Shown: positions 24,139 through 64,000 of the stretch, in pieces
Position numbering within the stretch: the first letter of the stretch is position 1
Layout of the letters: each line of letters begins with the position of its first letter
Source: a virus
Taxonomy: Duplodnaviria; Caudoviricetes
Virus record (IMG/VR): IMGVR_UViG_3300011429_000087
Location: 100,552-164,551 of that record
Strand: one strand, 5' to 3'
DNA: 64,000 bases
Program-made: the position numbers and the translations under genes
The notes under the pieces: model-generated
Databases searched by the model: none
What the model was told of the DNA's origin: nothing
Seen by the model: only the letters and a program-made list of their open reading frames with translations

Positions 24139-24146
24139 GGTTTTAC

Positions 24147-25175
24147 TTAGATCCGATAGAGTAGCGTAGTGTTACCTACTAGGTGACGATTATAAGAAGT
24201 GCTCTCAACGAAGAGGGTAAATTCGCCGTGCGTTCCAGGACGCAGCCGGATATCTTGCCCTGCTGGCAAGCCAAGTTTCCGACGGGCCTGTTCACCACCA
24301 TACAATGCTCCGGTCTGTTTGTCAAGAATCATAAGGTTCTTTGTTGAAGCAACTTTCTCTGGCTTTGTGAGTTCATAGAAGGCATGCCCCACAGAATAGG
24401 TTAGTCCTTTACTTCGAACGAAAGCTGCAATTTCAGTATTTTGATCCCTAGAATCAACCCGGAATCGTTTGAATTGCGTAGTAAGATCGGTCATGCGGTT
24501 AACATCACCCGGGGTGACGGCATCCATGTTAGCCATATAAGACTGAGTTGATTGACGCACGCTCTGACCGCTCCCACGGCTGGCAAAATAGCCCCGTGAT
24601 CCGGCGTTATTTCTTACAAGATAGTCGGCCACACCTTCGTCTGTAGCTTCCCAGGGCCGAACATTGTAGGCTGGAATCCCCATGTCAGTTAGATAATGCT
24701 CACCCCCGGGCGGGCAGTTACCAACAATACTGATATTTTCATCGGCCAGAGCACGACCGATGAGTGTCCGGATAGCATTTAGATCATAGATTTTCGACTC
24801 ATTCTCTTGACCGTCTGTAATCACTACGATAAGAAGACCGTCATCCTTACGCTTCTGATTAATACCAATTCTAATGGCATCCGCCACGGCATCGTAAAGA
24901 GCCGTCCCGCCACCTGGATTATAGTTAGAAGCATTGAAGTTCGTTTCTGCCGGTTTTACCACGTTGCTAAAACGAATCGTTGAGAGATCGGCCCTCTGAT
25001 TGGTATTTTTAGCTTCCTGTGTCAGCGTATCAACCTGATTCTTGAATGCATTTCGGGCCGACTCACGAATACCACGCATCGAACCGCTCTCGTCCAATAC
25101 AAGCTTAATGTAATTGATAGGACGACGCTTATGGTTCTTACGAGCCTTCTCTACTAGTTTGGCAAAGTTGTTCAT
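24147..25175 (-). CDS. vWA-domain protein
   Basis: LDESGSM MIDAS, GGTALYDA, VITDGQENES. Confidence 0.85.
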   Translation of the reverse strand: MNNFAKLVEKARKNHKRRPINYIKLVLDESGSMRGIRESARNAFKNQVDTLTQEAKNTNQRADLSTIRFSNVVKPAETNFNASNYNPGGGTALYDAVADAIRIGINQKRKDDGLLIVVITDGQENESKIYDLNAIRTLIGRALADENISIVGNCPPGGEHYLTDMGIPAYNVRPWEATDEGVADYLVRNNAGSRGYFASRGSGQSVRQSTQSYMANMDAVTPGDVNRMTDLTTQFKRFRVDSRDQNTEIAAFVRSKGLTYSVGHAFYELTKPEKVASTKNLMILDKQTGALYGGEQARRKLGLPAGQDIRLRPGTHGEFTLFVESTSYNRHLVGNTTLLYRI

Positions 25176-25642
25176 TTCCCATTAACTCCATTTTTAAAGA
25201 TTGACAAATCTGACCATTCGGTTTCTCCGTCCACCGGAATATAACGCATGATCTGTTTTTTAAGCACTTCCAAGGGTACATTATGCTTGTTCCTGAGGAA
25301 CAATTCGGAGGGAATCCAGGGACCGGGAGTGCGAATTACTTCATATTCTGCTCCGCACTTTTTGGCAACGTCGATGTAGGTATTGACCTCGGTAAGAGTT
25401 GTGGAGGTATTGGAAACGATCACGAATTCGTGGGATGAATTCTTGTCCATAAGTGCTTCGATCGCCTTTGTCCGGCACCAGACGTGAGCTTGTCCGAGCT
25501 TACGAGGATCGAATTGATAATTGCCATTCTTGCTAAAAAAATCATCAGACTCGAACCAATTGACTTTTGGTTCTCCACCAAGATGTTGGGCAATAGTGCT
25601 CTTGCCAGAGCCGGATGGGCCACGAATTATAATGAGTTTCAT
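25172..25642 (-). CDS. P-loop kinase (AAA_33 / polynucleotide-kinase-like)
   Basis: IRGPSGSGKST, SDDFF, VSNT, RNKHNVP. Confidence 0.8.
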   Translation of the reverse strand: MKLIIIRGPSGSGKSTIAQHLGGEPKVNWFESDDFFSKNGNYQFDPRKLGQAHVWCRTKAIEALMDKNSSHEFVIVSNTSTTLTEVNTYIDVAKKCGAEYEVIRTPGPWIPSELFLRNKHNVPLEVLKKQIMRYIPVDGETEWSDLSIFKNGVNGK

Positions 25643-26154
25643 GCTTTAGATGTAATTTCGTAAACGCCAGGGCCAATACATGTTAATCCCCATACATTAA
25701 TAGATTAAGAGTAGCTAAAACGTCTCGTAGCTGAGGTAATGTGCCTTCGCTAATTCTCTTGCAGTTCGCTAGGCGGTCTTTTAGATCACTATCTGATTCT
25801 TCTTTATATTTACGTTTACCGTCTGGTTCTAGCGTCTCTTTTGTTCTACGTTGCCCGTTAGGATGCCACATACGCTCATGTCCAGACTCAAATAGAATGA
25901 TAATGTCTTCAATAACCTTGATTCGCTCTGAAAGAGGCGAGGTTGGATATACTACAGGAGGTTGCATCAAAAATCCCCGTCATCATCCTCGTCTTCGTCA
26001 TCGAAACGCTTTTTGTGGCGGCGACGATTAAGATCGTGTTTGGCGTCCTGTTTATGTGGCTGATTACCAAATCGTTTGCCGCAATTTGCACATTCAGGAT
26101 CTTTATCGCCATTATAAGAGCCGCAATCTGTACACTGAATCAACTTCATATTAC

Positions 26155-26493
26155 TCATTTTGACCAATCCACTGACAAGTTATGTTCCTTAATAAGAGCC
26201 ATGCAATCATCACACGGCTTACTGAGCTTCATTTCGCCACGCTTGTTGATACGAATCACGTAAATACTATAACCAGAAAGATCACTTTTATTCAGAATAC
26301 TCAGAGCCTTAGCAACTGCCCTAACTTCTGCATGGCAAGTTGTATATGGGCCAGATCCTTTAGGGTGCGTCTTATAAGGGACGTTAAAAGCCCCGGTAAT
26401 CGGACGCCCCCTCTTATGGATAACCGCTCCGTGCCGGTAATGTTCGCACGGAGACTGAAGGGCCAACTTCATGGCGTGCTTCGTGTTTGTCAT
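26155..26493 (-). CDS. Cytidine-deaminase-like Zn protein of unknown substrate
   Basis: HGAV, CHAEVRA, SKPCDDC. Confidence 0.8.
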   Translation of the reverse strand: MTNTKHAMKLALQSPCEHYRHGAVIHKRGRPITGAFNVPYKTHPKGSGPYTTCHAEVRAVAKALSILNKSDLSGYSIYVIRINKRGEMKLSKPCDDCMALIKEHNLSVDWSK

Positions 26494-26812
26494 GGCCGCT
26501 ATTCTACAACGGGGCCGCTGCCAGTCAAGTTATTTTTTGAGGAATTTTTTTCGTAGCGGTTGCACTCTAGAACTTCTGAAAATTGCACCGGCTCTATCTC
26601 TGGATTCTTTACGGGATTCCAGAAACAAATGACCGTGTATCCTTCATTTCTAATTTCTGTCTGCTTAGGCTCTGGCTTAATAGTATCTTTATCTTCCCAT
26701 TCGTCCTTATCCTCATCGTCAGAATCGGAAAGAAGAATAGTGGCTTTTTCGGTTTGACGGACGCATAGGCCGTGTATGCATGTAAAGCAAAGAGGACGAG
26801 CATTTTTATTAG

Positions 26813-27391
26813 TCATGACTTTTCCAATTTCATTTTATATCTTTCTTTTATGTCTTTTCTACAAGTTCTGCAAACTCGCCCCCCGTTTGGCAATACATAA
26901 GTATTTTTTATTGTAAATTCGTGAGATCGCTTACAGTGAGTTTTTCTAGCGTTTTGGGCACATATTCCGTAACCACGTAGTACGTTCTCTGCATTAGTGA
27001 CCAACTCCATATGTATCGGATTAATACATGCCCTATTTCTACATAAATGATCTATAGTCAGAATATCATTTATTGGACCGTATATTTGTTCGTAGCACCA
27101 TCTGTGTGCTTGCCAAGTTTCACCTTCATAAGAGAAATTACCATAACCATCACGATCTTTATAACCAGCCCATTCAATACATCGTATACCGTTAAATAAT
27201 TTATCTGTAAATAAAAGATGGGAATTAAATCTTGTAATTGGATCTGTACGAGATAATACACGTAATCTATACGTTTCTTTTCTTAAGCTTTTTTCTGTTC
27301 TTTTAAGTATATCTAATAAATCTTTTGTGGGAATGACGCCATAAAAATCTATTAATATCTGTTTGTCTTCATTTGTCCATGAACCAATCAT
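26813..27391 (-). CDS. HNH homing endonuclease
   Basis: CIEW..GYG..AHR..IDHLCRNRACINP.H. Confidence 0.9.
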   Translation of the reverse strand: MIGSWTNEDKQILIDFYGVIPTKDLLDILKRTEKSLRKETYRLRVLSRTDPITRFNSHLLFTDKLFNGIRCIEWAGYKDRDGYGNFSYEGETWQAHRWCYEQIYGPINDILTIDHLCRNRACINPIHMELVTNAENVLRGYGICAQNARKTHCKRSHEFTIKNTYVLPNGGRVCRTCRKDIKERYKMKLEKS

Positions 27392-28383
27392 GATTTTAAT
27401 AAGTAATCCGATCCAACTATTTTTAATTTAATTCTTCCATATTTTGGATGGGTTTTATCTGGCACAGGTTGTAAAACCACGCCTTCTTTAATATGTGTGA
27501 CATTGGGAACGGTCGTTTGACCTTCAGATAGAGCTTTTGTATCTTCTATATTAAATGGTCCTCGATATAAAATAGGAACCCATTTAGTTTCGTCGGTCGT
27601 CATACAATCGTCATTAAGTGTGGCTAGCCAAACTGCTTCATCAAAGTTTAGCCATTGTCCTTTGTAAAAAATATCAAAGGCTCTAAAGAAAACTTGGTTA
27701 CTTGTACGACCATACGGAAATCCCTTAAGATGACCATAGATTTCTCCATAGAGCATGTGGTCGGGACTTGCTTCGCAGAATTTTTTTATCCACGGATTTT
27801 GCTCCAGACATTGCCACCATAGACTATTTGGATCTTCCATCTTCCATTCTTTGCATCCGGCAAACATCTTGCCATGGGTAAATACAAAGCGTCCTGTTGA
27901 ACCTTCTAATTTTTCAGAGATAACTACTTCTTCGCCCTCAGTTAGCAAGGCTGTACGGTTATAATAATTATCAAGATCATAGACCGGCCAATATCCATTG
28001 GGGCCTTGGCATGAAGCCCCTTTGGTGCTTAGGGCGTGTAGTTCTGACTCGTATCTTTCGACCTGAAGGCGTTCTAGGTAATTCTCGCCGAGTACAGCGT
28101 CATCAGGGGCAGGGATCAAAAAGCCATACGAAGTAACCCCACGTAACTTCTGTACCCTAACTCTATGTTTTGGGCCATGCCCAGGCTTCGCTAACCAACT
28201 AAACTCGCTCCGCGTTGTATCCACCACGTAGTCCGGTGGAATATAAATTCCTTTTTCTACACCTTCCCACTGTGCAGAATTAATGCATACGGTCCAACCG
28301 TCGACCTTGACAAGACTAAGCTTGTCGGCATTTGGATGTTTCTCTTTAATAATTTGAACCACTGGGATTAGATGATCTGACAT
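27388..28383 (-). CDS. RNA ligase, DRB0094 family
   Basis: N-terminal HPNADKL OB module, SEKLEGS, LYGEIYG, FRAFDI, KEGVV, KLKIV. Confidence 0.85.
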   Translation of the reverse strand: MSDHLIPVVQIIKEKHPNADKLSLVKVDGWTVCINSAQWEGVEKGIYIPPDYVVDTTRSEFSWLAKPGHGPKHRVRVQKLRGVTSYGFLIPAPDDAVLGENYLERLQVERYESELHALSTKGASCQGPNGYWPVYDLDNYYNRTALLTEGEEVVISEKLEGSTGRFVFTHGKMFAGCKEWKMEDPNSLWWQCLEQNPWIKKFCEASPDHMLYGEIYGHLKGFPYGRTSNQVFFRAFDIFYKGQWLNFDEAVWLATLNDDCMTTDETKWVPILYRGPFNIEDTKALSEGQTTVPNVTHIKEGVVLQPVPDKTHPKYGRIKLKIVGSDYLLKS

Positions 28384-31205: not shown

Positions 31206-31275
31206 TGGTCTGCCTAGATGGAACCGTCTTCTGTGTATCAGACAGATGCACTTATACCATTATACTACAGGCAGA
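31206..31275 (-). tRNA. tRNA-Ile(GAT)-like with truncated variable/T arm
   Basis: TCTGT-CTGATAC-ACAGA; T region reduced to AGACGGTTCCATCT; CCA. Confidence 0.6.
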
Positions 31276-31276
31276 A

Positions 31277-31347
31277 TTCCGAGACTAGGACTCGAACCTA
31301 GATAGGCGACTTCAAGGGCCGCCGTCCTACCGTTAGACGATCTCGGA
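31277..31347 (-). tRNA. tRNA-Gln(TTG), C33 variant
   Basis: GCGGC-CCTTGAA-GTCGC. Confidence 0.85.
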
Positions 31348-36406: not shown

Positions 36407-36943
36407 TTATTTCTTAAAAGCCTCTGCAAAGATATCTGCATCTTCCTGTAAAAAGAAGATAAAGGAGATTTGAAGATTATTGGTCTTGATAATTTCCTCA
36501 AGAGTATCTAGTGCGATCCGCACCTGATCTGCGGCGACTCGTTTAGGGAAACCATAAGCTCCCGTAGAAATCGCCGGAAAAACAAGTGTCTTACAGTTAT
36601 TGAGAATTGCTTTAAAAATGCTAGAGGAGTAAGCGTTACGAAGCAATAGATTTGCGTCTTGTTTGTCCTCATACTCGTCCCAAATTGGACCTACCGCGTG
36701 GATAATAAAAGACGCCGGAAGTCCGTGGCCCCGAGTAATCACGCACTCGCCCACATTACATCCATAAGCGTGTTCTGCCGTATCTCGCAGTCGTTCACAT
36801 TCTTCTAGAAGTCCTGGGCCAGCAGCTTGGTGAATAGCTCCGTTAACACCTCCACCACCTAAGACAGAAGAGTTGGCAGCATTTACGATGGCATCAACCT
36901 TGCACTTCGTGATGTCACCGACACGAATGTCTGGCTTAAACAT
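36407..36943 (-). CDS. Macrodomain protein (YmdB/MacroD-like ADP-ribose hydrolase)
   Basis: GDIT..DAIVNAAN..LGGGGV.GAIH.AAG, IIHAVGP, FPAISTGAYGFP. Confidence 0.95.
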   Translation of the reverse strand: MFKPDIRVGDITKCKVDAIVNAANSSVLGGGGVNGAIHQAAGPGLLEECERLRDTAEHAYGCNVGECVITRGHGLPASFIIHAVGPIWDEYEDKQDANLLLRNAYSSSIFKAILNNCKTLVFPAISTGAYGFPKRVAADQVRIALDTLEEIIKTNNLQISFIFFLQEDADIFAEAFKK

Positions 36944-37040
36944 TAACTAAATCCTTCCTGATAAACTCTTTATGCTGCTTTTCAGTCATTTTCTTGGTGC
37001 GTGACATATTTATACCTTAAAAATCCTTCGTGACGCCCCT

Positions 37041-37068
37041 ATTATACTCTACTTTCGCCGGGAGTCAA
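37041..37068 (-). promoter_or_regulatory. sigma70-type promoter TTGACT-N16-TATAAT
   Basis: Direct match. Confidence 0.75.
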
Positions 37069-39251
37069 GCGGGCAAATCTTTTTTATCGCGAAAAACGAT
37101 TCCGACCGGGAAACGTGGCAGATCGTCGTCGGTAAGATCAAAGTGTCTCACTGTCAATTGTCTTCCAATAAAGGACTTACGATTCTTAAACATCGCTTCT
37201 CGTTCTTCCATTGAAACTTTCATACTACATTCGAAAGTCTGCTCTGAGGTATTATTCTTACAAACCCATACAACTTTTCCAGCCATTTTACCTCTACCGT
37301 CGCGAGCGTCAGTAACTAAAAACTCTGAATCTTGGAATTTCTTAACCTTTAAAAGTTCTCTAGAGCGATAACCCCATAAGTATTTCCCCTCATGAAGTCG
37401 AATAATAGCCCCCTCATATCCTTCCTGAACAAAGACGTCATGAACGTCCCACATTTCTTTTTCAGAGGTAACATCTATAGTTGGGACTATCTTAATAAGA
37501 CCGCCAGTCCAGGCGGCTCGTTCGTATCCTTTTAAAAGCTTACGACGATTTTCCCAGTTGAGATCGTCAAATCCTGTCGACACTGGAATATCGTAGATGT
37601 GGTACTCGATCGTTTCGCTTTCAGGCTTAAATGACTTGCCCTTGGGGTCAGCAGACTTGGTGAGGGACGTAATTCTCTGGCAGGATTCGCCATGAATATA
37701 AAGTTCTCCATCTAATACACTATCCTTTGGGAGCCAATCTAAAGATGCCACAATATGTGGTATGTTCCAAGGCTTTCCTCCTCTGGAAGTGAGAGAGATT
37801 TCGTCTCCGTCCCAAGAGGCTAAAGCACGACAGTTATGAACAACGGTATTATTGGCAACATAATTATGATTTTTTTCTACTTCGATGTCATATTTCGTTG
37901 CTTTTGGCATTCTATGTGAACGCCTTACCTTAAAATCTATCCACTTAAACTCATCTTTTGCTTTATTGATATAATTATTCGTACTAAAATAGAACTTATA
38001 TTCTGCTCCATGACATTGCTTATTACGTAACTTATTTAAAATAAACAGAGTATCTTTTGTATCAAATGTTAAAAACTGTCCCGAGCACTTACTATTATTA
38101 ACTCTTTTATCAGTATAGATATTTGGTATACAGTTCCATACTATGTCAAAGTATTTTACAAACTCTTGGATCTGTTCTTTAGAATGTCCATGCGTACTGA
38201 TCGACAAGATCGGCGTGTCCCGGTTATTATTATTGTATGACAAACTACCGTCGTCACCAATCCATAATGATATGGCTTCTGGTGTTAGAAGCTTTTTCAA
38301 AGTCTTATATAAAACAAGTTTTCTTTTACCACACAAATCCGAATGTCCGGTAAAGTACCATAGTTTTATAGGAAAATTAGAATTTGTTAATGCGTCAGAT
38401 ACAAAACGAAAGCCTTGACTACCATACTCCGTGATAATTTCTGATACATTTCCTTTAATGTCTAAAGTCGTAATTTTGAAATTAAAATATGCCTTATTTG
38501 TATGTTGAAATACTACTCTATATGATTGTCCAGTCCCACGTTTTTCTATTACTATCATACTATCGCCAAGCAGCGTTCCAGCTATCAGGCTATTAAGATA
38601 GTCTGAATGTGTTTTAGTCTGAATCTTATCTTTCCCAGGTGCTAAATCTATAGCCTTTTTCCAGCCATTTTGTGTGAAAAATTTATGATCGCTTGTACAT
38701 TTAATATGTTTGCCATAAACTGGCACGATCTCTAACCATTCCTTATAATCTAATTCTCCATTATTAAACCAATTAATAACTGGCTGATATTCAAATATAC
38801 CACTTTGTTCATTAAGTGACAAAACATTTACTGGGAGTTTATTTTCAACAATTTCTTCTATTGTTAATTTTCCTTTATCGGTATCTATTAAAGTATTACG
38901 AAATAAACATCCATCTAATTTTGGCTGCACTGACGCGGGAAATTTAACCTTTCCGGGTTTAAAGTCATGTGCAAGCATAGGAAGATATAGGGACTCTTTG
39001 GCCCCTTCTGGCGTCTCAGAATACTTCCTTTCAACCTTATAAGTCCAAAGCGACTTGGCTTCTAACTTAGCCTGTTCCTCTGGAGAAGTCTCATTGCTAC
39101 GCCCAACGTTCTTACCTTCGGCAGTTTTACGTGATATTTGCATGACACCATGTACTTGCCCGTATTCGGTCACAATAACCGGACCTTCTGTCCAGACGGT
39201 CCACTGTCTGAGATCGCCGGACTTGGCTTTATGATATAATGTCGGCAACAT
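37065..39251 (-). CDS. ATP-dependent DNA ligase interrupted by an intein
   Basis: PMLA, QPKLDG|CR, LDGELY, YEGAIIR, LLKVK, PRFPV. Confidence 0.9.
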   Translation of the reverse strand: MLPTLYHKAKSGDLRQWTVWTEGPVIVTEYGQVHGVMQISRKTAEGKNVGRSNETSPEEQAKLEAKSLWTYKVERKYSETPEGAKESLYLPMLAHDFKPGKVKFPASVQPKLDGCLFRNTLIDTDKGKLTIEEIVENKLPVNVLSLNEQSGIFEYQPVINWFNNGELDYKEWLEIVPVYGKHIKCTSDHKFFTQNGWKKAIDLAPGKDKIQTKTHSDYLNSLIAGTLLGDSMIVIEKRGTGQSYRVVFQHTNKAYFNFKITTLDIKGNVSEIITEYGSQGFRFVSDALTNSNFPIKLWYFTGHSDLCGKRKLVLYKTLKKLLTPEAISLWIGDDGSLSYNNNNRDTPILSISTHGHSKEQIQEFVKYFDIVWNCIPNIYTDKRVNNSKCSGQFLTFDTKDTLFILNKLRNKQCHGAEYKFYFSTNNYINKAKDEFKWIDFKVRRSHRMPKATKYDIEVEKNHNYVANNTVVHNCRALASWDGDEISLTSRGGKPWNIPHIVASLDWLPKDSVLDGELYIHGESCQRITSLTKSADPKGKSFKPESETIEYHIYDIPVSTGFDDLNWENRRKLLKGYERAAWTGGLIKIVPTIDVTSEKEMWDVHDVFVQEGYEGAIIRLHEGKYLWGYRSRELLKVKKFQDSEFLVTDARDGRGKMAGKVVWVCKNNTSEQTFECSMKVSMEEREAMFKNRKSFIGRQLTVRHFDLTDDDLPRFPVGIVFRDKKDLPA
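37833..38909 (-). mobile_element. Intein (359 aa) with LAGLIDADG homing endonuclease
   Basis: Starts CLF, block B CTSDHKF, LIAGTLLGDS and WIGDDGS, ends VVHN|C. Confidence 0.9.
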
Positions 39252-39831
39252 ATTTATTTTTCCAAGGATGTTTTGCCATTCTTTCATATTTGCATCGTCT
39301 ACAGTGACGATAGCCATGTTTATCTAACCATGTATTCTTTTCGTCAAATATATGCCCATTATTACAATGAGTTTTTCGTAAATTTTGTGCGGGAGGACTA
39401 TTGCCACGCAAGACATTTTCTGTGTTTGGAACTGGCTCAAGATGTAATATATTAACGCAATTTCTATTTTTACATAAATGGTCTATTACTAACTCTTTTT
39501 TGAGAACGCCATTGAAATATTCCCAAGCATAACGATGTGCTCGGCGTCGTTTATTATTGATAGATATGACGCCATAACCTTCTCTAGAAGTTTTTCCTGT
39601 CCAAATCCAGCATGGCGTTTCATTAAAACTATGTTCTGATATCATGACTCGACGCATGATTTTGTCTATATTACTTTTTACTCTTGGATTTTTTAAGCCA
39701 AGCCGAATAGACGCCTGTTGTACCGAGGAAAGCGAACGATTTAATATCCTGGCTATTTCTGCATGAGTAAATTTTCCACACAGATTTTGTAATATTTCTT
39801 TCTCATCTTCTGACCACTTATTATCACCCAT
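39229..39831 (-). CDS. HNH homing endonuclease with N-terminal HTH
   Basis: CWIW..GYG..AHR..IDHLCKN..CVN..HLEPV. Confidence 0.9.
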   Translation of the reverse strand: MGDNKWSEDEKEILQNLCGKFTHAEIARILNRSLSSVQQASIRLGLKNPRVKSNIDKIMRRVMISEHSFNETPCWIWTGKTSREGYGVISINNKRRRAHRYAWEYFNGVLKKELVIDHLCKNRNCVNILHLEPVPNTENVLRGNSPPAQNLRKTHCNNGHIFDEKNTWLDKHGYRHCRRCKYERMAKHPWKNKYVADIIS

Positions 39832-55973: not shown

Positions 55974-56315
55974 GGGGTGATTTTAGAAGAACTCCAGAGA
56001 TTATGGGAGCATGGGGTGGATTTATCTTCCTCTTAAGTGGAATCCTAAAAGACTTAGCTTTTCCCTTACTATTATGCCTGGAATTCAGGAGGGAACGAAA
56101 GACGCTTACCAGGAAACCTAATCTCATCAATCCTCAGGATCGCCTTACTTAAGCCGAGGGGCGACGCCGGATGTGCGGGGTCCGCCCCGTGGCCGGGCAC
56201 GGGCAAAAAGTGCATGGGGGTGGGGTCGCACCACCAACGGCAAGGTTTTCCCCAAACCGGTCCGAGGGACTCTCTTGCCTATCTGGCCCACATTTAGAGC
56301 CACCCGTGCATAGAT

Positions 56316-56553
56316 AGGATACCACGTTTCCGTGGCGTGTCAAGTCGGTTTCCCTTTTCAGGGATCGTTGACGCCCAGAGTATACGTCAAGAACCCCACC
56401 TGTCAAACTGAAAAATAAAAAAGATTTAACCTTGACAAATTCGGCGGCGTGTGTTATGCTTCGTGGTTCGGAGGATGAGACGGCGTGCCGATCCGGCACA
56501 AAAGAATTTCCCCGATTTCTACTTGCATTCTTCAGGAATCGCGGTACTATACT
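56316..56553. promoter_or_regulatory. Divergent promoter cluster
   Basis: Leftward TTGACA-N16-TATCCT (56316-56343) and TTGACA-N16-TATACT (56379-56406); rightward TTGACA-N17-TATGCT (56432-56460) and TTGCAT-N16-TACTAT (56523-56550). Confidence 0.75.
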
Positions 56554-56581
56554 GACGTTCCGAAACACAAGGGAGAAACCG

Positions 56582-57535
56582 ATGAGTGCAGAAGTCGAAA
56601 CGGATCGTGGGGCCTTCACTGAGAAGGCCGCGTGGTGGGATACCGATGGTGTCCGGGTCATCAATGAACGTCTTCCGATGGAGGACTTTCTCGTCAAGGC
56701 CCGTATGTCCTACAATGTCACCAAAGAACAAGCAACCCGTTTCAATAAGGCGGGAGTGCAGGTCGATGTACCGAATCAGTTTAATCTGATTCGTGACGAT
56801 GACGAGACGGTTGTGTCACCGTCTACGGTTACGAAGAAGTACGAAGTTCGTATCCCTCGCGATCTCGCGATGGTCGTCGATCCGATCGTGCAGGGCGGAC
56901 TCGGTATCTATGATACCGCCTTCACGCTATACGGTGGACAGTCGGAAGTCGTGACGGTTCGTCTATGTGACATCAAGTCAAAGCCCGGAAACGACTCAAG
57001 CGATTGGACCTATTACCTTGTGTGCCAGAACTATCACGGTACTGGTAAGGCACGTTTCAAGATCGCCGGAAATCGTGTCGTCTGTCACAATACGGTTACT
57101 GCCGCGTTCGCTGGCGGGGCTGATCTTTCAATGGTTCACACTAAGAGTATCGTGCAGAAGTTCGCCGATGCTCCCAAAGTCTGGACGGCTGCCGCTACTG
57201 CCATTGCCGCACACTGTGACAAGCTGGCAAAGCTGGACAAGGTTGTAAACGTCCCGGAGACGATCGACGAACTGTTGGCGATCGACGACGACGCGACGAC
57301 TCAGCAGAAGAACCGTCGGGATCGTCTGGTCGCTGCCGCTTGTATGCCGATGATGGGAACGCACGGTAGGACTCTCTACGACATCTTCAATGCCGTCACC
57401 TACGACACGACGCACAACGCGGGCGGCAAGGCGGGGAAGACGATGACGGGCCGAATGGAATCTATTTTGGATGGAACGCGAGGAGACTTTGAAGAGACGA
57501 TGACGAGTAAGCTGTTTGCTCTCGCCGGAGTCTAA
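56582..57535 (+). CDS. DUF932-family phage/plasmid protein
   Basis: AW, R.D...V...Y, YL...N.H.G.G, RVVCHNT, HT, GRT.Y..FNAVT...H. Confidence 0.8.
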   Translation: MSAEVETDRGAFTEKAAWWDTDGVRVINERLPMEDFLVKARMSYNVTKEQATRFNKAGVQVDVPNQFNLIRDDDETVVSPSTVTKKYEVRIPRDLAMVVDPIVQGGLGIYDTAFTLYGGQSEVVTVRLCDIKSKPGNDSSDWTYYLVCQNYHGTGKARFKIAGNRVVCHNTVTAAFAGGADLSMVHTKSIVQKFADAPKVWTAAATAIAAHCDKLAKLDKVVNVPETIDELLAIDDDATTQQKNRRDRLVAAACMPMMGTHGRTLYDIFNAVTYDTTHNAGGKAGKTMTGRMESILDGTRGDFEETMTSKLFALAGV

Positions 57536-57549
57536 AAAGAAAGCAGAAC

Positions 57550-57574
57550 GTGGGGCCGGGAAACCCGGCCCCAC
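57550..57574 (+). terminator. GC-rich hairpin after the DUF932 gene
   Basis: GTGGGGCCGGG-AAA-CCCGGCCCCAC; no clear U tract. Confidence 0.5.
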
Positions 57575-57591
57575 TGGGGGACTAAAAAGAC

Positions 57592-57993
57592 GTGCCACGC
57601 AAAGATAAAACAAAACATCAGGAGTATAGTTTAGTACGTTATCATCAAAGACGTGCTAACGCGATTGAGTTTCTTGGTGGGCAGTGTGTCAAATGTAAAT
57701 CGTTAGATAGGTTAGAATTTGACCATATAAATCCCGCCACAAAGTCATTTCACGTCAACGATAAAATTTCTGGCGATTTAGATACTCTTATGCCAGAATT
57801 GCTTAAGTGTCAACTTTTATGCCATAGTTGCCATATGCAAAAAACTATTCTTGAGCGTGGAGATAAACCGTCCCAACATGGGTCAACTACTATGTATGGG
57901 CACGGCTGTAGGTGTCAATCTTGTAAAGCGGCAAATGCTACCTATTGGCAAAAATATAAAGCCAAAAAAAGACTTGACGCCACTAAAAAGTAG
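57592..57993 (+). CDS. HNH endonuclease
   Basis: LGGQCVKC..LEFDHINP..K..C.LLCHSCH; GCRC..C tail. Confidence 0.85.
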   Translation: MPRKDKTKHQEYSLVRYHQRRANAIEFLGGQCVKCKSLDRLEFDHINPATKSFHVNDKISGDLDTLMPELLKCQLLCHSCHMQKTILERGDKPSQHGSTTMYGHGCRCQSCKAANATYWQKYKAKKRLDATKK

Positions 57994-58198
57994 AGTATAC
58001 TAGCGTCATGGGTTACTATTATTTGCCGGGCGGAAACCACGGCGACCCGATGCGGGCCCTAAAGCTTCTGGTGAAGTTTCTTCTATGGGCAAGCCTGATA
58101 GGATTTATCGTCCTGTTGGTTCGAAAGATCACCGGAAAGATTCCTTGACTTCCGCGAGAGGCGGGGTAAAGTAAGGTAACTTCAAAAGGATCAAGACG

Positions 58199-58516
58199 AT
58201 GGACGAGACGACTAAGGCAGTCAACTACCTCCGCTCCAATGCCTGGGACTACCGCTCGCGGTTCGGCCATGATCGCAATACGTTCAGATACATCAGTGCC
58301 ATCAAGCAGGTTCGGGAAGATTTGGGGCTGACGTTGAGGGTGGCGAAGGATGCGATGGATCAGTGGCGGGACGCTGGTTTTCCGTCCGAGTTCTCCAATG
58401 CCATGCCAAATATCACTTTGTCCGGGGCCAAGCTGATTATGCAGAATCTTCTGCTTCGCGGCCTGCCCGGCCTGACCTCCCTGGAAAGGGATGCCATCCG
58501 TATCCTCGCTGATTGA
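58199..58516 (+). CDS. Protein with ribosomal bL12 (L7/L12) CTD-like motif
   Basis: ISAIKQVREDLGLTLRVAKDAMD; own promoter at 58145-58172. Confidence 0.55.
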   Translation: MDETTKAVNYLRSNAWDYRSRFGHDRNTFRYISAIKQVREDLGLTLRVAKDAMDQWRDAGFPSEFSNAMPNITLSGAKLIMQNLLLRGLPGLTSLERDAIRILAD

Positions 58517-58531
58517 CACCACAACAGGACG

Positions 58532-58585
58532 AAGACCGTCTCGACAATAAACTCCGAGTGGAGCTACGCCGGGGCGGTCTTTTTT
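58532..58585 (+). terminator. Intrinsic terminator
   Basis: AAGACCGTCTCG...CGGGGCGGTCTT followed by a T run. Confidence 0.6.
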
Positions 58586-58816
58586 AATTTGACAAACTTT
58601 TTTGATATGATAGACTTTGGGGGTCAACGCTTCCGGGACTTTAGGGCTGTTCTCTCCCCAGTTCTTTTCAGGCCACTTCCCGATTCCTCCTCGGGTCGTT
58701 CGGCTCTGACTTCAGAATACCTCAGAACTGGAAAGACGCAACCCGCAAAATAAAAATAAAAACTAGCTTGATTCCTGTAAGTCTTAGGCTATACTATTGG
58801 CACAAGGAAACCATAA

Positions 58817-59350
58817 ATGACACGCCACGAACTTCTGACGCTGTGCGAGACGATCCGGGGCGAGCTTCTTCCAGGATTCCCGGAAATTCAGACGGTACGG
58901 TTTTCGATCAGCAACCGCTATACGCGAAGCCTGGGGCGTGCTCGTTACTGCACGGGGGAAGTGATCCTGTCGGGCCCGGCCTACGTTGCCGTATCCCTGA
59001 ACGATCACCTTGCACCTGATACCGTCCGTCACGAACTAGCCCACATAGTGGCGTGGCGGCGTCACGCGGTGGCGGGGCACGGGCATACGTGGCAACGCCT
59101 TGCCGTGTCGATGGGATGCACGGGCGACCGCTGCACGCTAGGTGTGAAGCTTGGGAATGAAGTTACGCTGTCCTGTGGGGCCTGTGGGCATCAGACGGAG
59201 GAACGGGAAAACACTCTCAGAAGGTGGCACCGAAAGGGATCGCGTGCTATGTGCCCCAAGTGCCTTAAGGGCCTGCCGTTCCCCTGGGAAAGGTCCGTCA
59301 TGATGGCGGCGGCAGAGACGCCGAAAAGAATTTTGATTCAGAGGGGTTGA
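58817..59350 (+). CDS. SprT-like Zn metalloprotease with C-terminal Zn ribbon
   Basis: TRSLGRA, HELAH, GHG..W, CGAC..CPKC. Confidence 0.85.
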   Translation: MTRHELLTLCETIRGELLPGFPEIQTVRFSISNRYTRSLGRARYCTGEVILSGPAYVAVSLNDHLAPDTVRHELAHIVAWRRHAVAGHGHTWQRLAVSMGCTGDRCTLGVKLGNEVTLSCGACGHQTEERENTLRRWHRKGSRAMCPKCLKGLPFPWERSVMMAAAETPKRILIQRG

Positions 59351-59374
59351 CATCCTGAAAAGGTAGGGTACAGT
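59347..59374 (+). promoter_or_regulatory. sigma70-type promoter TTGACA-N16-TACAGT
   Basis: Direct match upstream of an ORF-free structured region. Confidence 0.7.
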
Positions 59375-59379
59375 ATGAA

Positions 59380-59630
59380 CGCCGGGACGGTTCGCTACCG
59401 CCGGTTGAGCGAAGCCCAACAAGCCTAGCACCCTGAAGCGGGTAGCTTCAATGCCCATACCGTTCCGAGGCTAAGAGGGACGGCGGGGCCACGTATGCCC
59501 CGTTAACAAAACGAGCCGCAAGGTTCGGTAGCTAGCATCACTACCCTTTTAAGGTAGGACGGAATCCCCATGGCTTTTTCATAGCTATGCCGTTAGGTGT
59601 GAAAAGGGCCCCGAGAGGGATCTCGGGGCC
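59380..59630 (+). ncRNA. Candidate ~250-nt multi-hairpin ncRNA with Lys- and Glu-like anticodon stem-loops
   Basis: At least 8 stems, G:U pairs valid on + strand, bounded by promoter and a 10-bp terminal hairpin. Confidence 0.65.
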
Positions 59631-59853
59631 TCTGCTATTTCTGGTTGACACCTAGCAAAGCTATGCTATACTCTGGTAACTCAAGGGAGACAGTCGTGCC
59701 CGAATCCATTCAGAAGATCATCCAGGATAGTAAGCTCAGTCCCGCTCAACTTCTGCACGAAGTTTGGACGAACCTTCGACTGCTCGATTCTGTCAACGGC
59801 ACGAACTATGCCAAACAGATTTCTAAAGAGCTTGAGAAATGGAGGGTCGACAG

Positions 59854-60072
59854 ATGAAGTGGACAAAGCGACAGCCCAAGGTTAGCGGCTACTACTGGCT
59901 GAAGCAACCGCAACGCGACGGGGGCTACTACATTCCTACCGTGGTCAAAGTCAAGATTAGTGACGATCCAGAATGGCCGGAGGCGACTTATTCCTCCTGC
60001 AATTATGAGTTGGACTCCGACTTTCATCCTGCGGCCCTTTGGGCCGGGCCGATTCCGCCCCCGAGGGACTAA
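59854..60072 (+). CDS. Small phage protein, paralogue of 21417..21638
   Basis: MKWTKRQPKVSGYYW...WAGPIPPP; GGAGG SD. Confidence 0.6.
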   Translation: MKWTKRQPKVSGYYWLKQPQRDGGYYIPTVVKVKISDDPEWPEATYSSCNYELDSDFHPAALWAGPIPPPRD

Positions 60073-60301
60073 CATGGAACACAGAATCAAAACGAGCCGG
60101 GGCGAAATCCTTATCAAGGATTCGCACATCTTCGAGATCGTCGTTCCCGATAACGAGCAGCTTGTCGTGACTTTCAGGGAATCAAATCTTTCCTTTAGGG
60201 TTGGCGGACTTCCTGGGGACGCCAAAGCTACGCCCCAGTGCGGAAGGGATTTTCAGGTTGACAAGTCCCAGTAAGGTGGCATAATGGGGCTTCGCCTCAA
60301 C

Positions 60302-60377
60302 GGCCCTGTCGTCCAACGGCCAGTGACGCCGCCCTTTCAAGGCGGAGACGAGAGTTCGACCCTCTCCAGGGCTACCA
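60302..60377 (+). tRNA. tRNA-Glu(TTC)
   Basis: CCGCC-CTTTCAA-GGCGG, CCA; own promoter at 60258-60285. Confidence 0.9.
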
Positions 60378-61000
60378 CTTGACACCTTTAAGAACTGAGG
60401 ATATACTACTCTCAACTTCAAAGGGGAACCAAATGGACCTGTTCAAAAAGATCCGCGAAATCCAGGATGAGAAATGTCTGCGGGATGAGGATATGGTTCT
60501 CCTCTTGTGCATCAATCTTCAGATTTTGGACTCGACGTTCCTAACGAGGCATGGGGAAAAAATCGTGGCAGAGCTTGCGTGTCCAAAAAGCTGAGTTATA
60601 GTTATCTCAACTTCAAGGGAGCTAACTTATGTGCCGCGACTGGACCGGGGACCACGAAATCCGAGCCGACGAGGAAGACGACGTTAAGGGCTGCGTCGAG
60701 TGCGGTCAGAAGGATTGCCCGGGTGACTGCGATCCTTACGCTCATTTGCCGTTCCTTCGGAAGTATGAGCCGACGGACGAAGAACTTGAAGAGATGAACC
60801 GCGTGTGGCAAAATGCACACCGGGGATGTGTGGGGAACTAAAATGCCACAATCTCTTTTCGACTACATCCGTGAGTATCAAGACTCGCACGATTGTAGTG
60901 ATGACGACATGATTGAGATTCTTTGCGATTGCATCGAAGTTGTTCAGAATGCCGATCCTAAGTGGGAAAATCTGACTGGACTTATAAAGGAATGTCTTTC

Positions 61001-61074
61001 GGGCTCTTAGCTTAGTGGCAAAGCTACCGGCCTTTAACCGGCAGACCGGGGTTCGATTCCCTGATAGCCCACCA
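61001..61074 (+). tRNA. tRNA-Lys(TTT), C33 variant
   Basis: ACCGG-CCTTTAA-CCGGC, A73, CCA. Confidence 0.85.
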
Positions 61075-61082
61075 ATTAACCT

Positions 61083-61270
61083 TTCTGCCACCCCTGTACT
61101 AGATGGCGTCATGGGTGGAAACCAAAGCGATCCGGTGCCTCGGGGCGGGACTTTAACCTGTCCTCGGGGCACTAGTATTTTTTGCCGTTTCACGGCAAAG
61201 CTTGTTCTCCTCCCGGCGACCTTGGCAGTTGTGTTAACACTATAACACAGAATTGGCTGGCGTCCAGCCA
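61083..61270 (+). ncRNA. Candidate structured RNA downstream of tRNA-Lys, with Lys- and Glu-like anticodon stem-loops
   Basis: 15-bp stem capped by ACTTTAA; TTTGCC-GTTTCAC-GGCAAA; further hairpins. Confidence 0.55.
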
Positions 61271-61324
61271 GAAATAAAAGATTTGACTTTGTAAGATTAT
61301 GTGCTATATTGTGGTGGGTGAAAT

Positions 61325-61657
61325 ATGAAACTCTTCCTCGACGACGAGAGGGCCCCACCCTCACCACAGTATCAAGTGGCATACCAAGGCTGGCAAGCAG
61401 TTGTCTACCTTGTGAGAAATAATTTCGCCATCGAGGAACTGAGTCTCGATCATGACCTAGGCGATGGTGTGCCAACTGGCTACGATGTTGCCGCTTGGCT
61501 TGAGAAAGTTGTTCTCACGCAAGGCGTACAGCCTCCAAAGATCCTGCGGGTACATTCTGCCAACCCTGTCGGTCGGGCACGGATTTTGCAAGCTTTTCAG
61601 AGCATCGCAAGATACTGTGAAGCGAATGGGATGGAGATTCCTCAAGTTTTCGGTTGA
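61325..61657 (+). CDS. Cyclic-phosphate-processing receiver-like domain protein
   Basis: KLFLDDER.P, LSLDHDLG..TGYDV, HSANPVG; own promoter at 61283-61310. Confidence 0.8.
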   Translation: MKLFLDDERAPPSPQYQVAYQGWQAVVYLVRNNFAIEELSLDHDLGDGVPTGYDVAAWLEKVVLTQGVQPPKILRVHSANPVGRARILQAFQSIARYCEANGMEIPQVFG

Positions 61658-61737
61658 CACAACGCGAAGCGAGAGTATACTAGGACCAGCTTCACGGGTT
61701 GTGAAGTCTAAACATTCCCTTTTTAGGAGTTCGGACA

Positions 61738-62004
61738 ATGGCGAAGCAGATTCAGGTTACGAAGTCGTGGGGCATCGGCTCCATCCCCGAGACGAAGGGC
61801 CGCTACATTCTGTGCGGCTCCGACTACTCAGCCCCGCGTTTCATCGACGCCGTGTCGGTCGGGAACGGCGTCAAGGTGTTCAATATGGACGGCACCGAAG
61901 TTCGTCAGGACGCGACGCTGCGTCACTTCGGCCCGCTGCCCGGTCAGGACCGCTCGATTGCGGCCTCTGCCCGGTTCGCTGCGGAGCCGGCCCAGGCGAG
62001 CTAA
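61738..62004 (+). CDS. Small hypothetical early protein
   Basis: AGGAG SD, promoter at 61654-61681, downstream hairpin. Confidence 0.65.
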   Translation: MAKQIQVTKSWGIGSIPETKGRYILCGSDYSAPRFIDAVSVGNGVKVFNMDGTEVRQDATLRHFGPLPGQDRSIAASARFAAEPAQAS

Positions 62005-62394
62005 CGCCTCGGGATTCGTCAGCCTCGGCGGGGTCAATCCCCCGCCGGGGCAGTTTTGCGTTTAAAGGGTACACGATGAACGAATTTCTCATTCGATGTT
62101 ATCTTGCATACCTTCGGTTTCGTGATATAGTGTGGGACCAACTAAGCGGCTTGCGAGATTCACTTCGGGACGGGACTTCCCGTCTCGGAAATCGAGGATG
62201 CACTATGGGGAATCATCTTCCATGAGTAACGACATCGCCCACTTTAATTCGCCCGGCCCTTTCGTTGTGGCCGTAGGCAATGCGTTCGATGGGCTCGTGG
62301 TGTACGGCCCGTTTGATACGTCGGAGGATGCTCAAACGTTTGGGGAAGGCTGTAAGAGGGGAGAGGACTGGACGATCGTGAAGCTTGAGAAGCC

Positions 62395-62841
62395 GTGAGT
62401 TTCCTACTCACAATCTTCCTTTCAGTGGGTGGCACGGATTTAGCTACACTTGATGTTAAGCGTGAAGAAATTCGCCCCCTACTAAATGCTCTAGCGGTAG
62501 TCGAGTCTAACAATAACGATGCCGCCGTGGGCGACAATGGGCGTGCCATAGGACGCTATCAGATTTGGGAAATCTACTGGCATGATGCTGTAGAGTTTTG
62601 CCCTTCTCTTAAGGGGGAATATCAGGACGTACGTAGTAAAGACTACGCTGAAAGAATCATAACGGCATATCTCTTGCGTTACGCTAGGGATGCCGTAGAG
62701 TGTAAGGATTTCGAACAGTTGGCCCGTATCCACAATGGGGGTCCGAAAGGGCACAAGAAAAAAGCTACCCTGAAATATTGGAATAGGGTGCGGGAAAATC
62801 TAGAAGTGCCGAAACGACGCTTTATATACTGGAAAATCTAG
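62395..62841 (+). CDS. Invertebrate-type lysozyme/destabilase-like muramidase with signal/anchor
   Basis: VES..GD..G.YQI..YW.DA..Y..RY..ARIHNGGP.G..T..YW. Confidence 0.75.
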   Translation: MSFLLTIFLSVGGTDLATLDVKREEIRPLLNALAVVESNNNDAAVGDNGRAIGRYQIWEIYWHDAVEFCPSLKGEYQDVRSKDYAERIITAYLLRYARDAVECKDFEQLARIHNGGPKGHKKKATLKYWNRVRENLEVPKRRFIYWKI

Positions 62842-63060
62842 CCAGTTCCTTTTGTGCCAGAGTCGCCCTTTATAAGGGCGGAGCGGTGGCTGCATCCCCA
62901 GGCCCGGCAACGGGCCGAAAATTTTTCCGAGTAAGTTTTACCAACTCGGTTTTTTCTGGCACGCTTTTTGCTCAGTGGCGTTACTTTTTGGTAACGGTCA
63001 ATTCTTCCGTCACCATTCAGTAACACTAGTCGCCCGGTGGGCACACTCTCCAACGCTACT

Positions 63061-63132
63061 AATCTATCTCCGATTTTTAGAGTGTCAAATAATTTTTAAA
63101 TCTCTTGACACCCTTTTAAGGTATGGTATTCT
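63061..63132. promoter_or_regulatory. Back-to-back promoter pair
   Basis: Leftward TTGACA-N16-TAGATT; rightward TTGACA-N16-TATTCT. Confidence 0.55.
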
Positions 63133-63170
63133 AAGAATGTCTAGGAAGCATTAAGGAAAGGAAACAAATC

Positions 63171-63455
63171 ATGCCAGAATGCTACTGCGATTCTGTGACG
63201 CATCCGAACGGCGAATGTATGGCAAATTATGCCATTCCCGATAGAAGCGGCCCCTACTTCACGAAAGGGAAGAAGTATCAAATTCGAAACGGTATCGGCA
63301 ATCTTTATGCCGTGACTGACGATTTGGGGCACGAAAGATATCTTTCCAAGCAAGATGGGGTGCCATGTCCGCACCTTCCGCCATTGGGAAATCTTCAGCA
63401 TCATAGATGCTTTAGCTCCGAACATCTTGGACAATGGAAGTATATGGCGAATTAA
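63171..63455 (+). CDS. Hypothetical protein
   Basis: AGGA SD, downstream of promoter. Confidence 0.55.
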   Translation: MPECYCDSVTHPNGECMANYAIPDRSGPYFTKGKKYQIRNGIGNLYAVTDDLGHERYLSKQDGVPCPHLPPLGNLQHHRCFSSEHLGQWKYMAN

Positions 63456-63765
63456 TAGGGGCCAATTTCAGAAGTGATTAAAAATCATATTAATGCAAAA
63501 AATGGGCCAAAATCTGCCCCTGTCATGTTTGTTACCATCCGGTGACGTAACCGGCTGGTAACAGTCACCAAACGGTAACGGAAATATATTCCGATCTTTC
63601 GGCATTGGCACGATACTTGCTAAAGCGGCAAATCCTGCACTAGTATAGCCTATGCAAGCGGCGACGCAAGAGCGAAAACCCTTCCCACAATTTTCCTTTT
63701 AGTGGAGTTGCCGTCCGTCCGACATAGGTTATAGTCCAAGCGAACCAAACAAAAGGGAATCTACC

Positions 63766-64000
63766 ATGCAGACGATGACACGAAACGAATTGACTGCGTT
63801 TCTGACGGGGATTCGGGGGGCGACGTTCGCGACTCTGACGACAGAGACAGAACCGAAACTACTGAAGACCGGGAATACGCTCGGGAGCGTTCGGAAGGTG
63901 TCTCGCGTGAACGTCTGTCTTGGGTTTCAGTATGAAGCCGCAGTAAACCGTCAGCGAATCCGGGAAGATGGGATTCCCGATTTCGAAGCAAAGCCCCGGC
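63766..64000 (+). CDS. Phage hypothetical protein, truncated by the window end
   Basis: MQTMTRNEL..GATFATLTT..YEAAVNRQR; SD-like AAGGGA. Confidence 0.6.
   Translation, partial: MQTMTRNELTAFLTGIRGATFATLTTETEPKLLKTGNTLGSVRKVSRVNVCLGFQYEAAVNRQRIREDGIPDFEAKPR

Follow-up and report, generated by a model that had tools for sequence, protein, structure and literature searches.

The interplay between phage transfer RNAs (tRNAs) and tRNA-cutting defences is a recent and active topic, and the closest described case is that of phage T5, whose tRNAs for Lys(UUU), Thr(UGU) and Asn(GUU) act against the AriB nuclease of PARIS (PMC11464382, PMC12409363), with anticodon-loop variants described as well (PMC10264068). 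Here we analysed the terminal 64 kilobases (kb) of an IMG/VR phage record that is 164.5 kb long and has been rated as linear and 80% complete; these 64 kb are called the window throughout. A block near its end (59347-61657) is a compact natural test case for this topic, with two U34 tRNAs (one of them with a rare C33), a gene for a predicted cREC enzyme, two conserved RNAs (ncRNA1 and ncRNA2, for non-coding RNA) and host-type promoters. We found that the block is a conserved set of parts in a small clade of environmental phages, in its components, structures and synteny, and that ncRNA1 stands for a real structured RNA family, new and well supported, which contains a swappable module and has so far been seen only in this clade. 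An earlier note on the same DNA had proposed that the block is an early module of decoy RNAs, replacement tRNAs and end repair directed against anticodon nucleases.

The literature statements behind that proposal were found to be accurate. AriB cuts tRNA-Lys(UUU) and T5 has a resistant copy (PMC11464382, PMC12409363), while PrrC cuts tRNA-Lys between positions 33 and 34, leaving a 2',3'-cyclic phosphate at position 33, and overexpressed RloC prefers tRNA-Glu (PMC2610378). AriB, being Mg-dependent and cutting between 40 and 41 (40/41), has no tie to the healing of cyclic phosphates. In T4, the damage done by PrrC is repaired by Pnkp and Rnl1 (PMC2610378, PMC10264068). The cREC family is predicted to resolve cyclic phosphates on RNA ends or ADP-ribose derivatives (PMC7824862, PMC9503650) and has been described as experimentally uncharacterised (PMC9503650).

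Our block resembles the T5 case in having a tRNA-Lys(UUU) with a deviant arm (C33, and C39 instead of the U39 required by AriB) and host-type promoters, and the other C33 tRNAs of the phage include Thr(UGU) and Asn(GUU). It differs from T5 in that the tRNA-Lys of the relatives has the normal U33, and in that T5 resistance maps to positions 39 and 41, not 33. As in T4 repair, the genome combines a tRNA-Lys(UUU) with Rnl1-like, Rnl2-like, PNK-like and HD genes, but these are placed 33-40 kb away from the block, a Pnkp phosphatase domain of the T4 type was not identified, and cREC would be a different, putative healer. The cREC protein is like its family in its full-length profile match, its complete set of motifs and its stand-alone form in a phage, and the genome also carries RNA ligases, a Macro domain protein and NAD-salvage genes. 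Unlike the typical context, the gene follows tRNA-Lys in a probably early block and not an RNA ligase, sirtuin or Nudix gene.

A block of tRNAs, RNAs and cREC kept in a small clade

No close relative was found in the phage record collection, the only match being to the tRNA-Glu in Synechococcus phages B3/B23, and viral contigs queried via SprT or DUF932 gave no useful relatives. Relatives were recovered through protein look-ups. The SprT-like protein encoded just upstream of ncRNA1 had one relative (52% identical, on contig L083), and the small open reading frame (ORF) at 59854-60069 led to L084/L085, L088, L089 and L090 and to ten further contigs (L091-L100), which are strain-level variants from different samples, 99.8-100% identical to the window. 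Protein identity of the relatives to the window is ~50-88%.

The gene order of the clade reads DUF932, (HNH), SprT, (gp82-like), ncRNA1, small ORFs, tRNA-Glu, small ORFs (with an HNH gene in some), tRNA-Lys, trailer element, promoter, (ORFs) and cREC. It recurs in L084/L085, L088 and L091-L098 and in part in L083, L089 and L090. The synteny that the earlier note had asked for is present, as the order tRNA-Glu, tRNA-Lys, cREC is kept in all contigs of sufficient length. The RNA elements are the best conserved DNA of the block. The features are listed below (window positions).

59347..59374, plus strand: ncRNA1 promoter, sigma-70-type, TTGACA-N16-TACAGT; the same -35 context and a -10 precede the L083 and L088 homologues
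59381..59645, plus strand: ncRNA1, structured RNA, recognised as a promoter-to-terminator unit with folding and homologues
59460-59483, 59484-59502 and 59512-59527, plus strand: ncRNA1 helices H1, H2 and H3
59541..59557, plus strand: Lys-type anticodon-arm look-alike CUACC-CUUUUAA-GGUAG in the variable module, read directly
59558..59594, plus strand: helix Px (GACGG/CCGUU) enclosing AAUCCCC and the apical hairpin 59569-59589; both stems covary in four lineages
59606..59631, plus strand: ncRNA1 terminator hairpin, loop GGGA; 11 pairs, 3 compensatory
60258..60285, plus strand: promoter of tRNA-Glu, TTGACA-N16-CATAAT; same sequence at the end of L083 and in L089
60302..60377, plus strand: tRNA-Glu(UUC), loop CUUUCAA, CCA encoded (ARAGORN, Rfam)
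60379..61010, plus strand: promoter 60379-60407 and small ORFs 60433-60594, 60629-60841 and 60843-61010, leading into tRNA-Lys
61001..61074, plus strand: tRNA-Lys(UUU), loop CCUUUAA (C33), CCA encoded (ARAGORN, Rfam)
61075..61180, plus strand: ncRNA2, conserved 3' trailer of the tRNA-Lys transcript, with hairpin A (61088-61118) and terminator hairpin B (61134-61173)
61181..61199, plus strand: second hairpin UUGCC-GUUUCAC-GGCAA, 'Glu-like'; the stem-loop itself spans 61182-61198
61203..61250, plus strand: conserved block CUUGUUCUC..CCUUGGCAGUUGUG, located before the cREC promoter, common to L084 and partly L088, absent from L090
61283..61310, plus strand: cREC promoter, TTGACT-N16-TATATT
61325..61657, plus strand: cREC_REC protein, 110 amino acids, stand-alone (Pfam PF20274; phrog_1479)

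The description of the region as promoter-dense was borne out: 24 sigma-70-like sites lie in 56000-64000, versus 6.2 +/- 2.6 in shuffled sequence, mostly on the plus strand and near consensus. Near-consensus promoters precede ncRNA1, tRNA-Glu and the operon that comes next, as well as the cREC gene. Because these promoters are host-type and imply transcription by the host polymerase, the block is probably early, a timing that is itself inferred. The early operons of this region also share a leader, CAACUUCAAAGGAG, ahead of their start codons.

Run on the whole genome, ARAGORN gave 17 tRNAs, all within the window, 15 of them on the minus strand. The only two on the plus strand are Glu(UUC) and Lys(UUU), both of which also qualify as tRNAs by Rfam (RF00005; 52.7 and 56.7 bits versus a cut-off of 29). 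Both tools thus agree with the earlier note that no other tRNA lies outside the minus-strand arrays, and its figure of about 22 tRNA(-like) genes comes down to 18, the ARAGORN set plus one weak minus-strand tRNA from Rfam. This weak candidate (33.4 bits; 31209-31274, minus strand) stands between two tRNA-Gln genes and is not in the ARAGORN output.

The anticodon loop CUUUCAA is the same in all five tRNA-Glu genes of the clade. At position 33 of tRNA-Lys, the window has C where L084, L088 and L090 have U. In all, C33 takes the place of the near-universal U33 in four tRNAs of the phage, the tRNA-Lys (61001-61074, plus strand, CCUUUAA) and the following three.

31277-31347, minus strand: tRNA-Gln(UUG), loop CCUUGAA
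34724-34797, minus strand: tRNA-Asn(GUU), loop CCGUUAA
35566-35640, minus strand: tRNA-Thr(UGU), loop CCUGUAA

As predicted from the genes, this C33 set is newly seen here. The AriB targets reported in E. coli are Lys(UUU), Thr(UGU) and Asn(GUU) (PMC12409363), and the PrrC cut falls directly after position 33 (PMC2610378); for these reasons, the set suggests a pressure on anticodon loops.

The tRNA-Lys ends the operon that starts at promoter 60379-60407. Among the three small ORFs of that operon, the MCRDWTGDHE ORF has homologues in L084, L088, L089 and L090. The stop codon of the last one (60843-61010) falls within the 5' end of tRNA-Lys, so that RNase P processing of the tRNA would remove this stop codon from its messenger RNA.

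The receiver-like protein at the end of the block was correctly recognised in the earlier note as of cREC type with a promoter of its own. The match to PF20274 has an E-value of 5.7e-22 (78.6 bits versus a cut-off of 27; profile positions 1-87 of 88), and the motifs LDDER, SLDHDLG, TGYD and VHSANPVG align with 11 other phage members. Sequence search gave no relative with a solved structure. In an unrelated phage lineage (L054, L055, L057; 3871-7602), a cREC gene stands within an array of tRNA-Lys(UUU), Leu, Val, Glu(UUC) and transfer-messenger RNA (tmRNA).

Relatives also carry AT-rich HNH homing-endonuclease genes that adjoin tRNA-Lys or sit at the ncRNA1 site (L084:3140-3520, L084:4934-5300, L088:3760-4125), and there is one in the window at 57592-57993. 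These insertions beside tRNA-Lys and at the ncRNA1 site are consistent with a block of mosaic composition.

ncRNA1 and the tRNA-Lys trailer

The sequence of ncRNA1 contains no plus-strand ORF of at least 30 amino acids (the longest has 22) and folds better than its shuffles (z score -2.9). Homologues in L089, L083 and L088 bring the number of independent lineages to four with the window. Across these, RNAalifold predicted 46 pairs, 13 of which show compensatory changes, and in a manual model of the 3' domain (22 pairs, 8 compensatory), 99.1% of cells are paired, compared with 35-47% in slid controls. One stretch of 59 nucleotides (nt) is 100% identical to L083, where the neighbouring genes are at 67-79%. 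An Rfam search of the window and four relatives, with E-values up to 10, returned only tRNAs and no match to ncRNA1. With regard to the claim that the block holds two ORF-free structured RNAs, the fold scores of both (z -2.9 for ncRNA1, z -4.2 versus shuffles for 61072-61282) and the ncRNA1 unit uphold it, but ncRNA2 is only the trailer of tRNA-Lys.

From 5' to 3', ncRNA1 comprises an optional 5' extension, H1, H2, an invariant GUUAACAAAA, H3, an invariant GUAGCUA, the variable module, Px around AAUCCCC and an apical hairpin, GAAAAG and the terminator. H1 is missing in L088, and H3 is a tetraloop hairpin whose stem sequence is different in all four lineages. GUAGC (59528-59532) may pair with GCUAU in the tail (59634-59638). 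The hairpin at 59606-59631 qualifies as an intrinsic terminator, is followed by CUGCUAUUUCU, and keeps its apex A-GGGA-U (the GGGA loop and its closing A-U pair) among the homologues. The alleles are mosaic. H2 is of the type GGGGC-CACGUAU-GCCCC in the window (59484-59502) and L083 and of the type GGGGA-CAAUAGAU-UCCCC in L089 and L088, and the payload (59533-59557 in the window) is of type A in the window and L089 and of type B in L083 and L088, such that all four combinations are present.

Several known RNAs offer parallels. T4 RNA C and RNA D are small stable RNAs of unassigned role beside phage tRNA genes, and E. coli 3'ETS-leuZ is a tRNA-trailer RNA. The two RNAs here are similarly folded, non-coding and with or beside tRNAs, and would presumably be freed through tRNA processing in the case of ncRNA2 and through a terminator of its own in that of ncRNA1; they differ in that no sequence or Rfam relation was found and that ncRNA1 combines a separate promoter with a swappable module. 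Y RNA-like RNAs (YrlA, RF02553, with Ro60/Rsr) likewise have a conserved scaffold with tRNA-like parts. The B-type relatives read GUAG-CUA-CCGCAA, which fits the pattern 'stem, three bases, CNGCAA'. On the side of the differences, Rfam gave no YrlA match, the part enclosed would measure ~160 nt, and the window copy reads CUAGCAUCA, which lacks the CNGCAA motif. The motif ACAGCAA has 4 matches in the window versus 7.2 expected, none of them in the studied block. We rejected the Ro60/Y-RNA reading, as there was no RF02553 match and the 80%-complete genome showed neither a TROVE gene nor, in a search with no positive control, a DUF2828 gene. A tmRNA reading was rejected as well: ARAGORN finds no tmRNA, there is neither an acceptor stem nor a CCA, and the short frames after GUAGCUA give atypical tags.

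Wider searches stayed within the clade. Exact and degenerate DNA patterns from the ncRNA1 core and the conserved ncRNA2 loop had no matches in viral, metagenome and genome contigs, and when ~1 Mb of loci was scanned with a covariance model built on the 3' domain of ncRNA1, the four known lineages alone were recovered. No antisense targets of the conserved loops were found within the phage genome; a 9/10 match of GUUAACAAAA at 61229 is not conserved in the relatives.

The earlier note saw in each RNA a UUU-AA loop followed by a UUC-A loop and took these for anticodon decoys, suggesting a check of whether the loops stay invariant while the stems covary. The four loops are present as written, but neither their order nor most of the loops themselves are kept in relatives, and in the Px domain of ncRNA1 it is the stems that covary while the loops change. 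The CUUUUAA hairpin is a perfect copy of the canonical tRNA-Lys(UUU) anticodon arm, found in the window phage and its strain variants. Its CUACC can alternatively pair with GGUAG upstream (59527-59531). In L089, the closest other lineage, the counterpart is CUGCC-CCUUAAA-GGUAG, with the stem kept and two loop changes, one in the third anticodon base. L083 and L088 have a 75-nt insert in its place, in which a stem of 6-7 base pairs (bp) encloses a T-arm-like hairpin (GGUUCGACUCC / GGGUUCAACUCC) and a CCC-UUAAUC-GGG hairpin. The sole motif common to the variable modules is CCUUAA, which is no anticodon.

Similarly, the 'Glu-like' apical hairpin of ncRNA1 (59569-59589) has a 7-bp stem that covaries well, and its loop reads UUUUCAU in the window, AUUUCAUA in L089, AAUUCAA in L088 and UGUCCAUAU in L083. 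Another form is GUUUUCAUA, and none is the CUUUCAA of tRNA-Glu. The majority allele of the same phage, with a single-nucleotide polymorphism (59575 T>G) in seven of the nine strain contigs that cover it, has lost the closing pair and has a loop of 9 nt. The second 'Glu-like' hairpin, at 61181-61199, is absent from L090, L088 and L084. A loop identical to its target and kept while stems vary, as would be expected of a decoy, was thus found neither in the Lys and Glu loops of ncRNA1 nor in the Glu loop of ncRNA2.

ncRNA2 lacks a separate promoter and serves the tRNA-Lys transcript as 3' trailer and terminator. Over the first 60 nt, which include hairpin A with a conserved 13-nt loop, its sequence is highly conserved across four lineages, and trailer identity to L090, L088 and L084 is 80-85% versus 65-78% in adjacent genes. 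Pairing is kept in hairpins A and B (97% and 96%), but with one compensatory pair each, so that covariation gives no proof of either hairpin. The element begins with CUCCUUUCUGCC (ACCUUUCUGCC in the window, 61079-61090; also L088:4214-4226, L090:1204-1216 and L084:5569-5582). This start resembles the 3' end of 16S ribosomal RNA (anti-Shine-Dalgarno) and is predicted to be unpaired in three of the four lineages.

Hairpin B has a 16-bp, GC-rich, terminator-like stem, the loop ACUUUAA (61150-61156) and, after the stem, AGUAUUUUUU with the U run of an intrinsic terminator; how efficient it is as a terminator is uncertain, because the U run begins a few bases past the stem. Its loop is CCUUUAA in L090 and CUUUUAA in L088, and the closing pair has one change among lineages, from G-C to A-U, the divergence being too small for selection to be evident. 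L084 has a different trailer hairpin, with loop CCUAAAAA, and an ORF between the tRNA and the trailer element. The tip resembles tRNA-Lys arms past the loop: L088 has 15 nt (CGGACUUUUAAUCCG) in common with the L084 tRNA-Lys (shuffle p 0.003), and L090 has 11 nt in common with the window tRNA-Lys (p 0.01), both values being uncorrected for the 16 comparisons made. A conserved tRNA-Lys trailer element whose tip appears to copy the Lys anticodon arm is newly seen here, and the tip may be left over from a tRNA or be the site of some arm-reading factor. The shared UUUAA is explicable by descent alone because the three loop-keeping trailers are only 11-16% diverged; at 84-89% identity, five unchanged loop bases are expected by descent about 1 time in 4.

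A genome-wide census of both strands gave 1709 hairpins in which a 5-bp stem closes a loop of 7 nt, 18 of them with NNUUUAA or NUUUC(A/G)N loops. In the 2.3-kb plus-strand stretch of the block there are three Lys/Glu-like loops outside tRNAs versus ~0.1 expected, a post-hoc count. For this phage the excess is real, but comparison does not extend it to the relatives. Most of the striking anticodon likeness is therefore specific to one phage, and we have tempered our claim accordingly.

How the block may be explained

On balance we lean, by a modest degree, towards reading the block as host-polymerase-transcribed, probably early genes conserved in the clade, which combine tRNA supply, a predicted cREC enzyme, ncRNA1 and the trailer. 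Early timing, a part in counter-defence, the activity of cREC and the roles of the RNAs are elements of this reading that we infer. Two working tRNAs, Glu(UUC) and Lys(UUU), would be delivered from strong consensus promoters; both would decode highly used codons, and both belong to the class attacked by PrrC- and RloC-type anticodon nucleases. As a predicted phosphoesterase for cyclic-phosphate ends, cREC could work with the distant RNA ligases, kinase and HD enzyme. ncRNA1 would be an independent small RNA in which H2, GUUAACAAAA, H3, GUAGCUA, the Px domain and the terminator make up a conserved scaffold around a middle module that can be swapped. Its most likely role is to bind protein, the Lys-arm look of the module being coincidental in this phage. 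ncRNA2 would end the tRNA-Lys transcript, its Lys-arm-like tip being a tRNA remnant or a site for an arm-reading factor. The 'replace' and 'repair' parts of the earlier proposal are plausible in view of the conserved synteny and genome context, and would not be new in kind.

Several observations weigh against this explanation. At the ncRNA1 site, L084/L085 have only a short RNA that shares the terminator end and has no core, so the core is dispensable in that lineage, and the independent lineages of ncRNA1 number only four. No partner protein for ncRNA1 was found, as searches of the 80%-complete genome for TROVE (with working controls) and DUF2828 (with no positive control) were negative. Among 60 cREC loci of other phages, 51 have no tRNA within 6 kb, and Lys(UUU) and Glu(UUC) are both near by in a single lineage. 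Elsewhere, then, cREC is rarely near tRNAs, and its linkage to them here may just reflect the conserved gene order of the clade. The local excess of Lys- and Glu-like loops is also left unexplained.

The alternative that survives best is plain codon supply, in which the tRNAs stand under strong early promoters to serve GAA and AAA codons, and cREC and the RNAs are merely adjacent early genes. Among 40,550 codons of the AT-rich phage body (41.6% GC, guanine plus cytosine), GAA ranks third and AAA fifth, with GAA making up 72% of Glu and AAA 57% of Lys codons, which keeps this alternative live; the usual position of cREC away from tRNAs and a gene order kept over the whole block also agree with it. 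Yet AAT, GAT and ATT are used as much or more, while the tRNA-Asn sits in the minus-strand array and ARAGORN found no Asp tRNA and no ATT-reading Ile tRNA, and C33 in Lys, Thr, Asn and Gln suggests an anticodon-loop pressure beyond supply. We regard codon supply as the whole explanation as possible but on the lower side.

It is also conceivable, if rather doubtful, that cutting and repair by homing endonucleases left tRNA-Lys fragments in hairpin B or in the ncRNA1 module, with no anticodon-linked function. HNH genes adjoin tRNA-Lys in L084 and L088, sit at the ncRNA1 site in L084 and lie near by in the window, and the ncRNA1 alleles are mosaic, with a T-arm-like hairpin inside the B-type payload. 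In addition, the 15 and 11 identical bases of the hairpin B tips are shared with the tRNA-Lys of other clade members and not with that of their own genome. The likeness does not, however, reach past the anticodon arm, its significance becomes marginal after correction for 16 comparisons, and hairpin A of the trailer is conserved with no tRNA likeness at all.

A bolder possibility, which we hold to be unlikely, is that ncRNA1 and the trailer belong to a class of phage RNAs whose conserved scaffold offers tRNA parts, as a bait, to host factors recognising anticodon arms, either anticodon nucleases or modification enzymes. The part presented would be swapped between phages, a Lys arm here and a T-arm-like minihelix in L083 and L088. 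If true, this would be an RNA-level counter-defence not yet described. The trailer hairpin that seems to copy the Lys arm offers a concrete and cheap test of the decoy idea.

A decoy in the strict sense draws on the perfect 5-bp/7-nt CUUUUAA hairpin, on the local loop excess, on a trailer tip that keeps UUUAA in the window, L090 and L088 while positions 32/33 and the stem vary, and on the tip's match to tRNA-Lys arms. The mnm5s2U34 and t6A37 modifications of tRNA-Lys matter for PrrC, and unmodified hairpins would have neither, which counts against it. Also in its favour, a published study names competition by overexpressed viral tRNAs as a possibility (PMC12409363), and C33 of tRNA-Lys adjoins the PrrC cut site (PMC2610378). 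Three of the four loops gain no support as decoys from the comparison and show the lack of conservation among homologues that the earlier note had named as a refutation: the Lys loop of ncRNA1 is altered in the closest relative and replaced in two others, the 'Glu' loops never match tRNA-Glu, and the second 'Glu' hairpin is confined to the window phage. The idea would apply only to the trailer hairpin, which keeps a Lys-like loop in three of four lineages at low divergence. The full scheme, with look-alikes soaking up PrrC or RloC, resistant phage tRNAs replacing the cut ones and cREC healing the ends, is for these reasons the least probable of the readings considered.

Repair-type genes and the surroundings of the block

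The RNA-repair-type genes that could supply partners for cREC lie in two groups on the minus strand (21793-28383 and 36407-39317), beside the tRNA arrays, and the set also includes a vWA-like protein of 341 amino acids and an HNH gene. RtcB is absent from the phage genome. The identified members are as follows.

21793-22911, minus strand: Rnl1-like RNA ligase
23440-24138, minus strand: HD protein, related to the phosphohydrolase domain of CCA enzymes
25172-25642, minus strand: PNK-like kinase
27388-28383, minus strand: Rnl2-like ligase
36407-36943, minus strand: Macro domain protein

The last 8 kb of the window (56000-64000) has 49-54% GC, versus 41.6% in the phage body, and the step from ~41% occurs at a divergent promoter region near 56400. 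A chimeric assembly was considered as its cause and ruled out: the same junction is seen on L091-L093 and on the P0010 contig, and because these contigs are independent, the GC-rich tail is native. In the same neighbourhood as the repair-type genes, there is also an ATP-dependent DNA ligase with an intein that carries a LAGLIDADG endonuclease.

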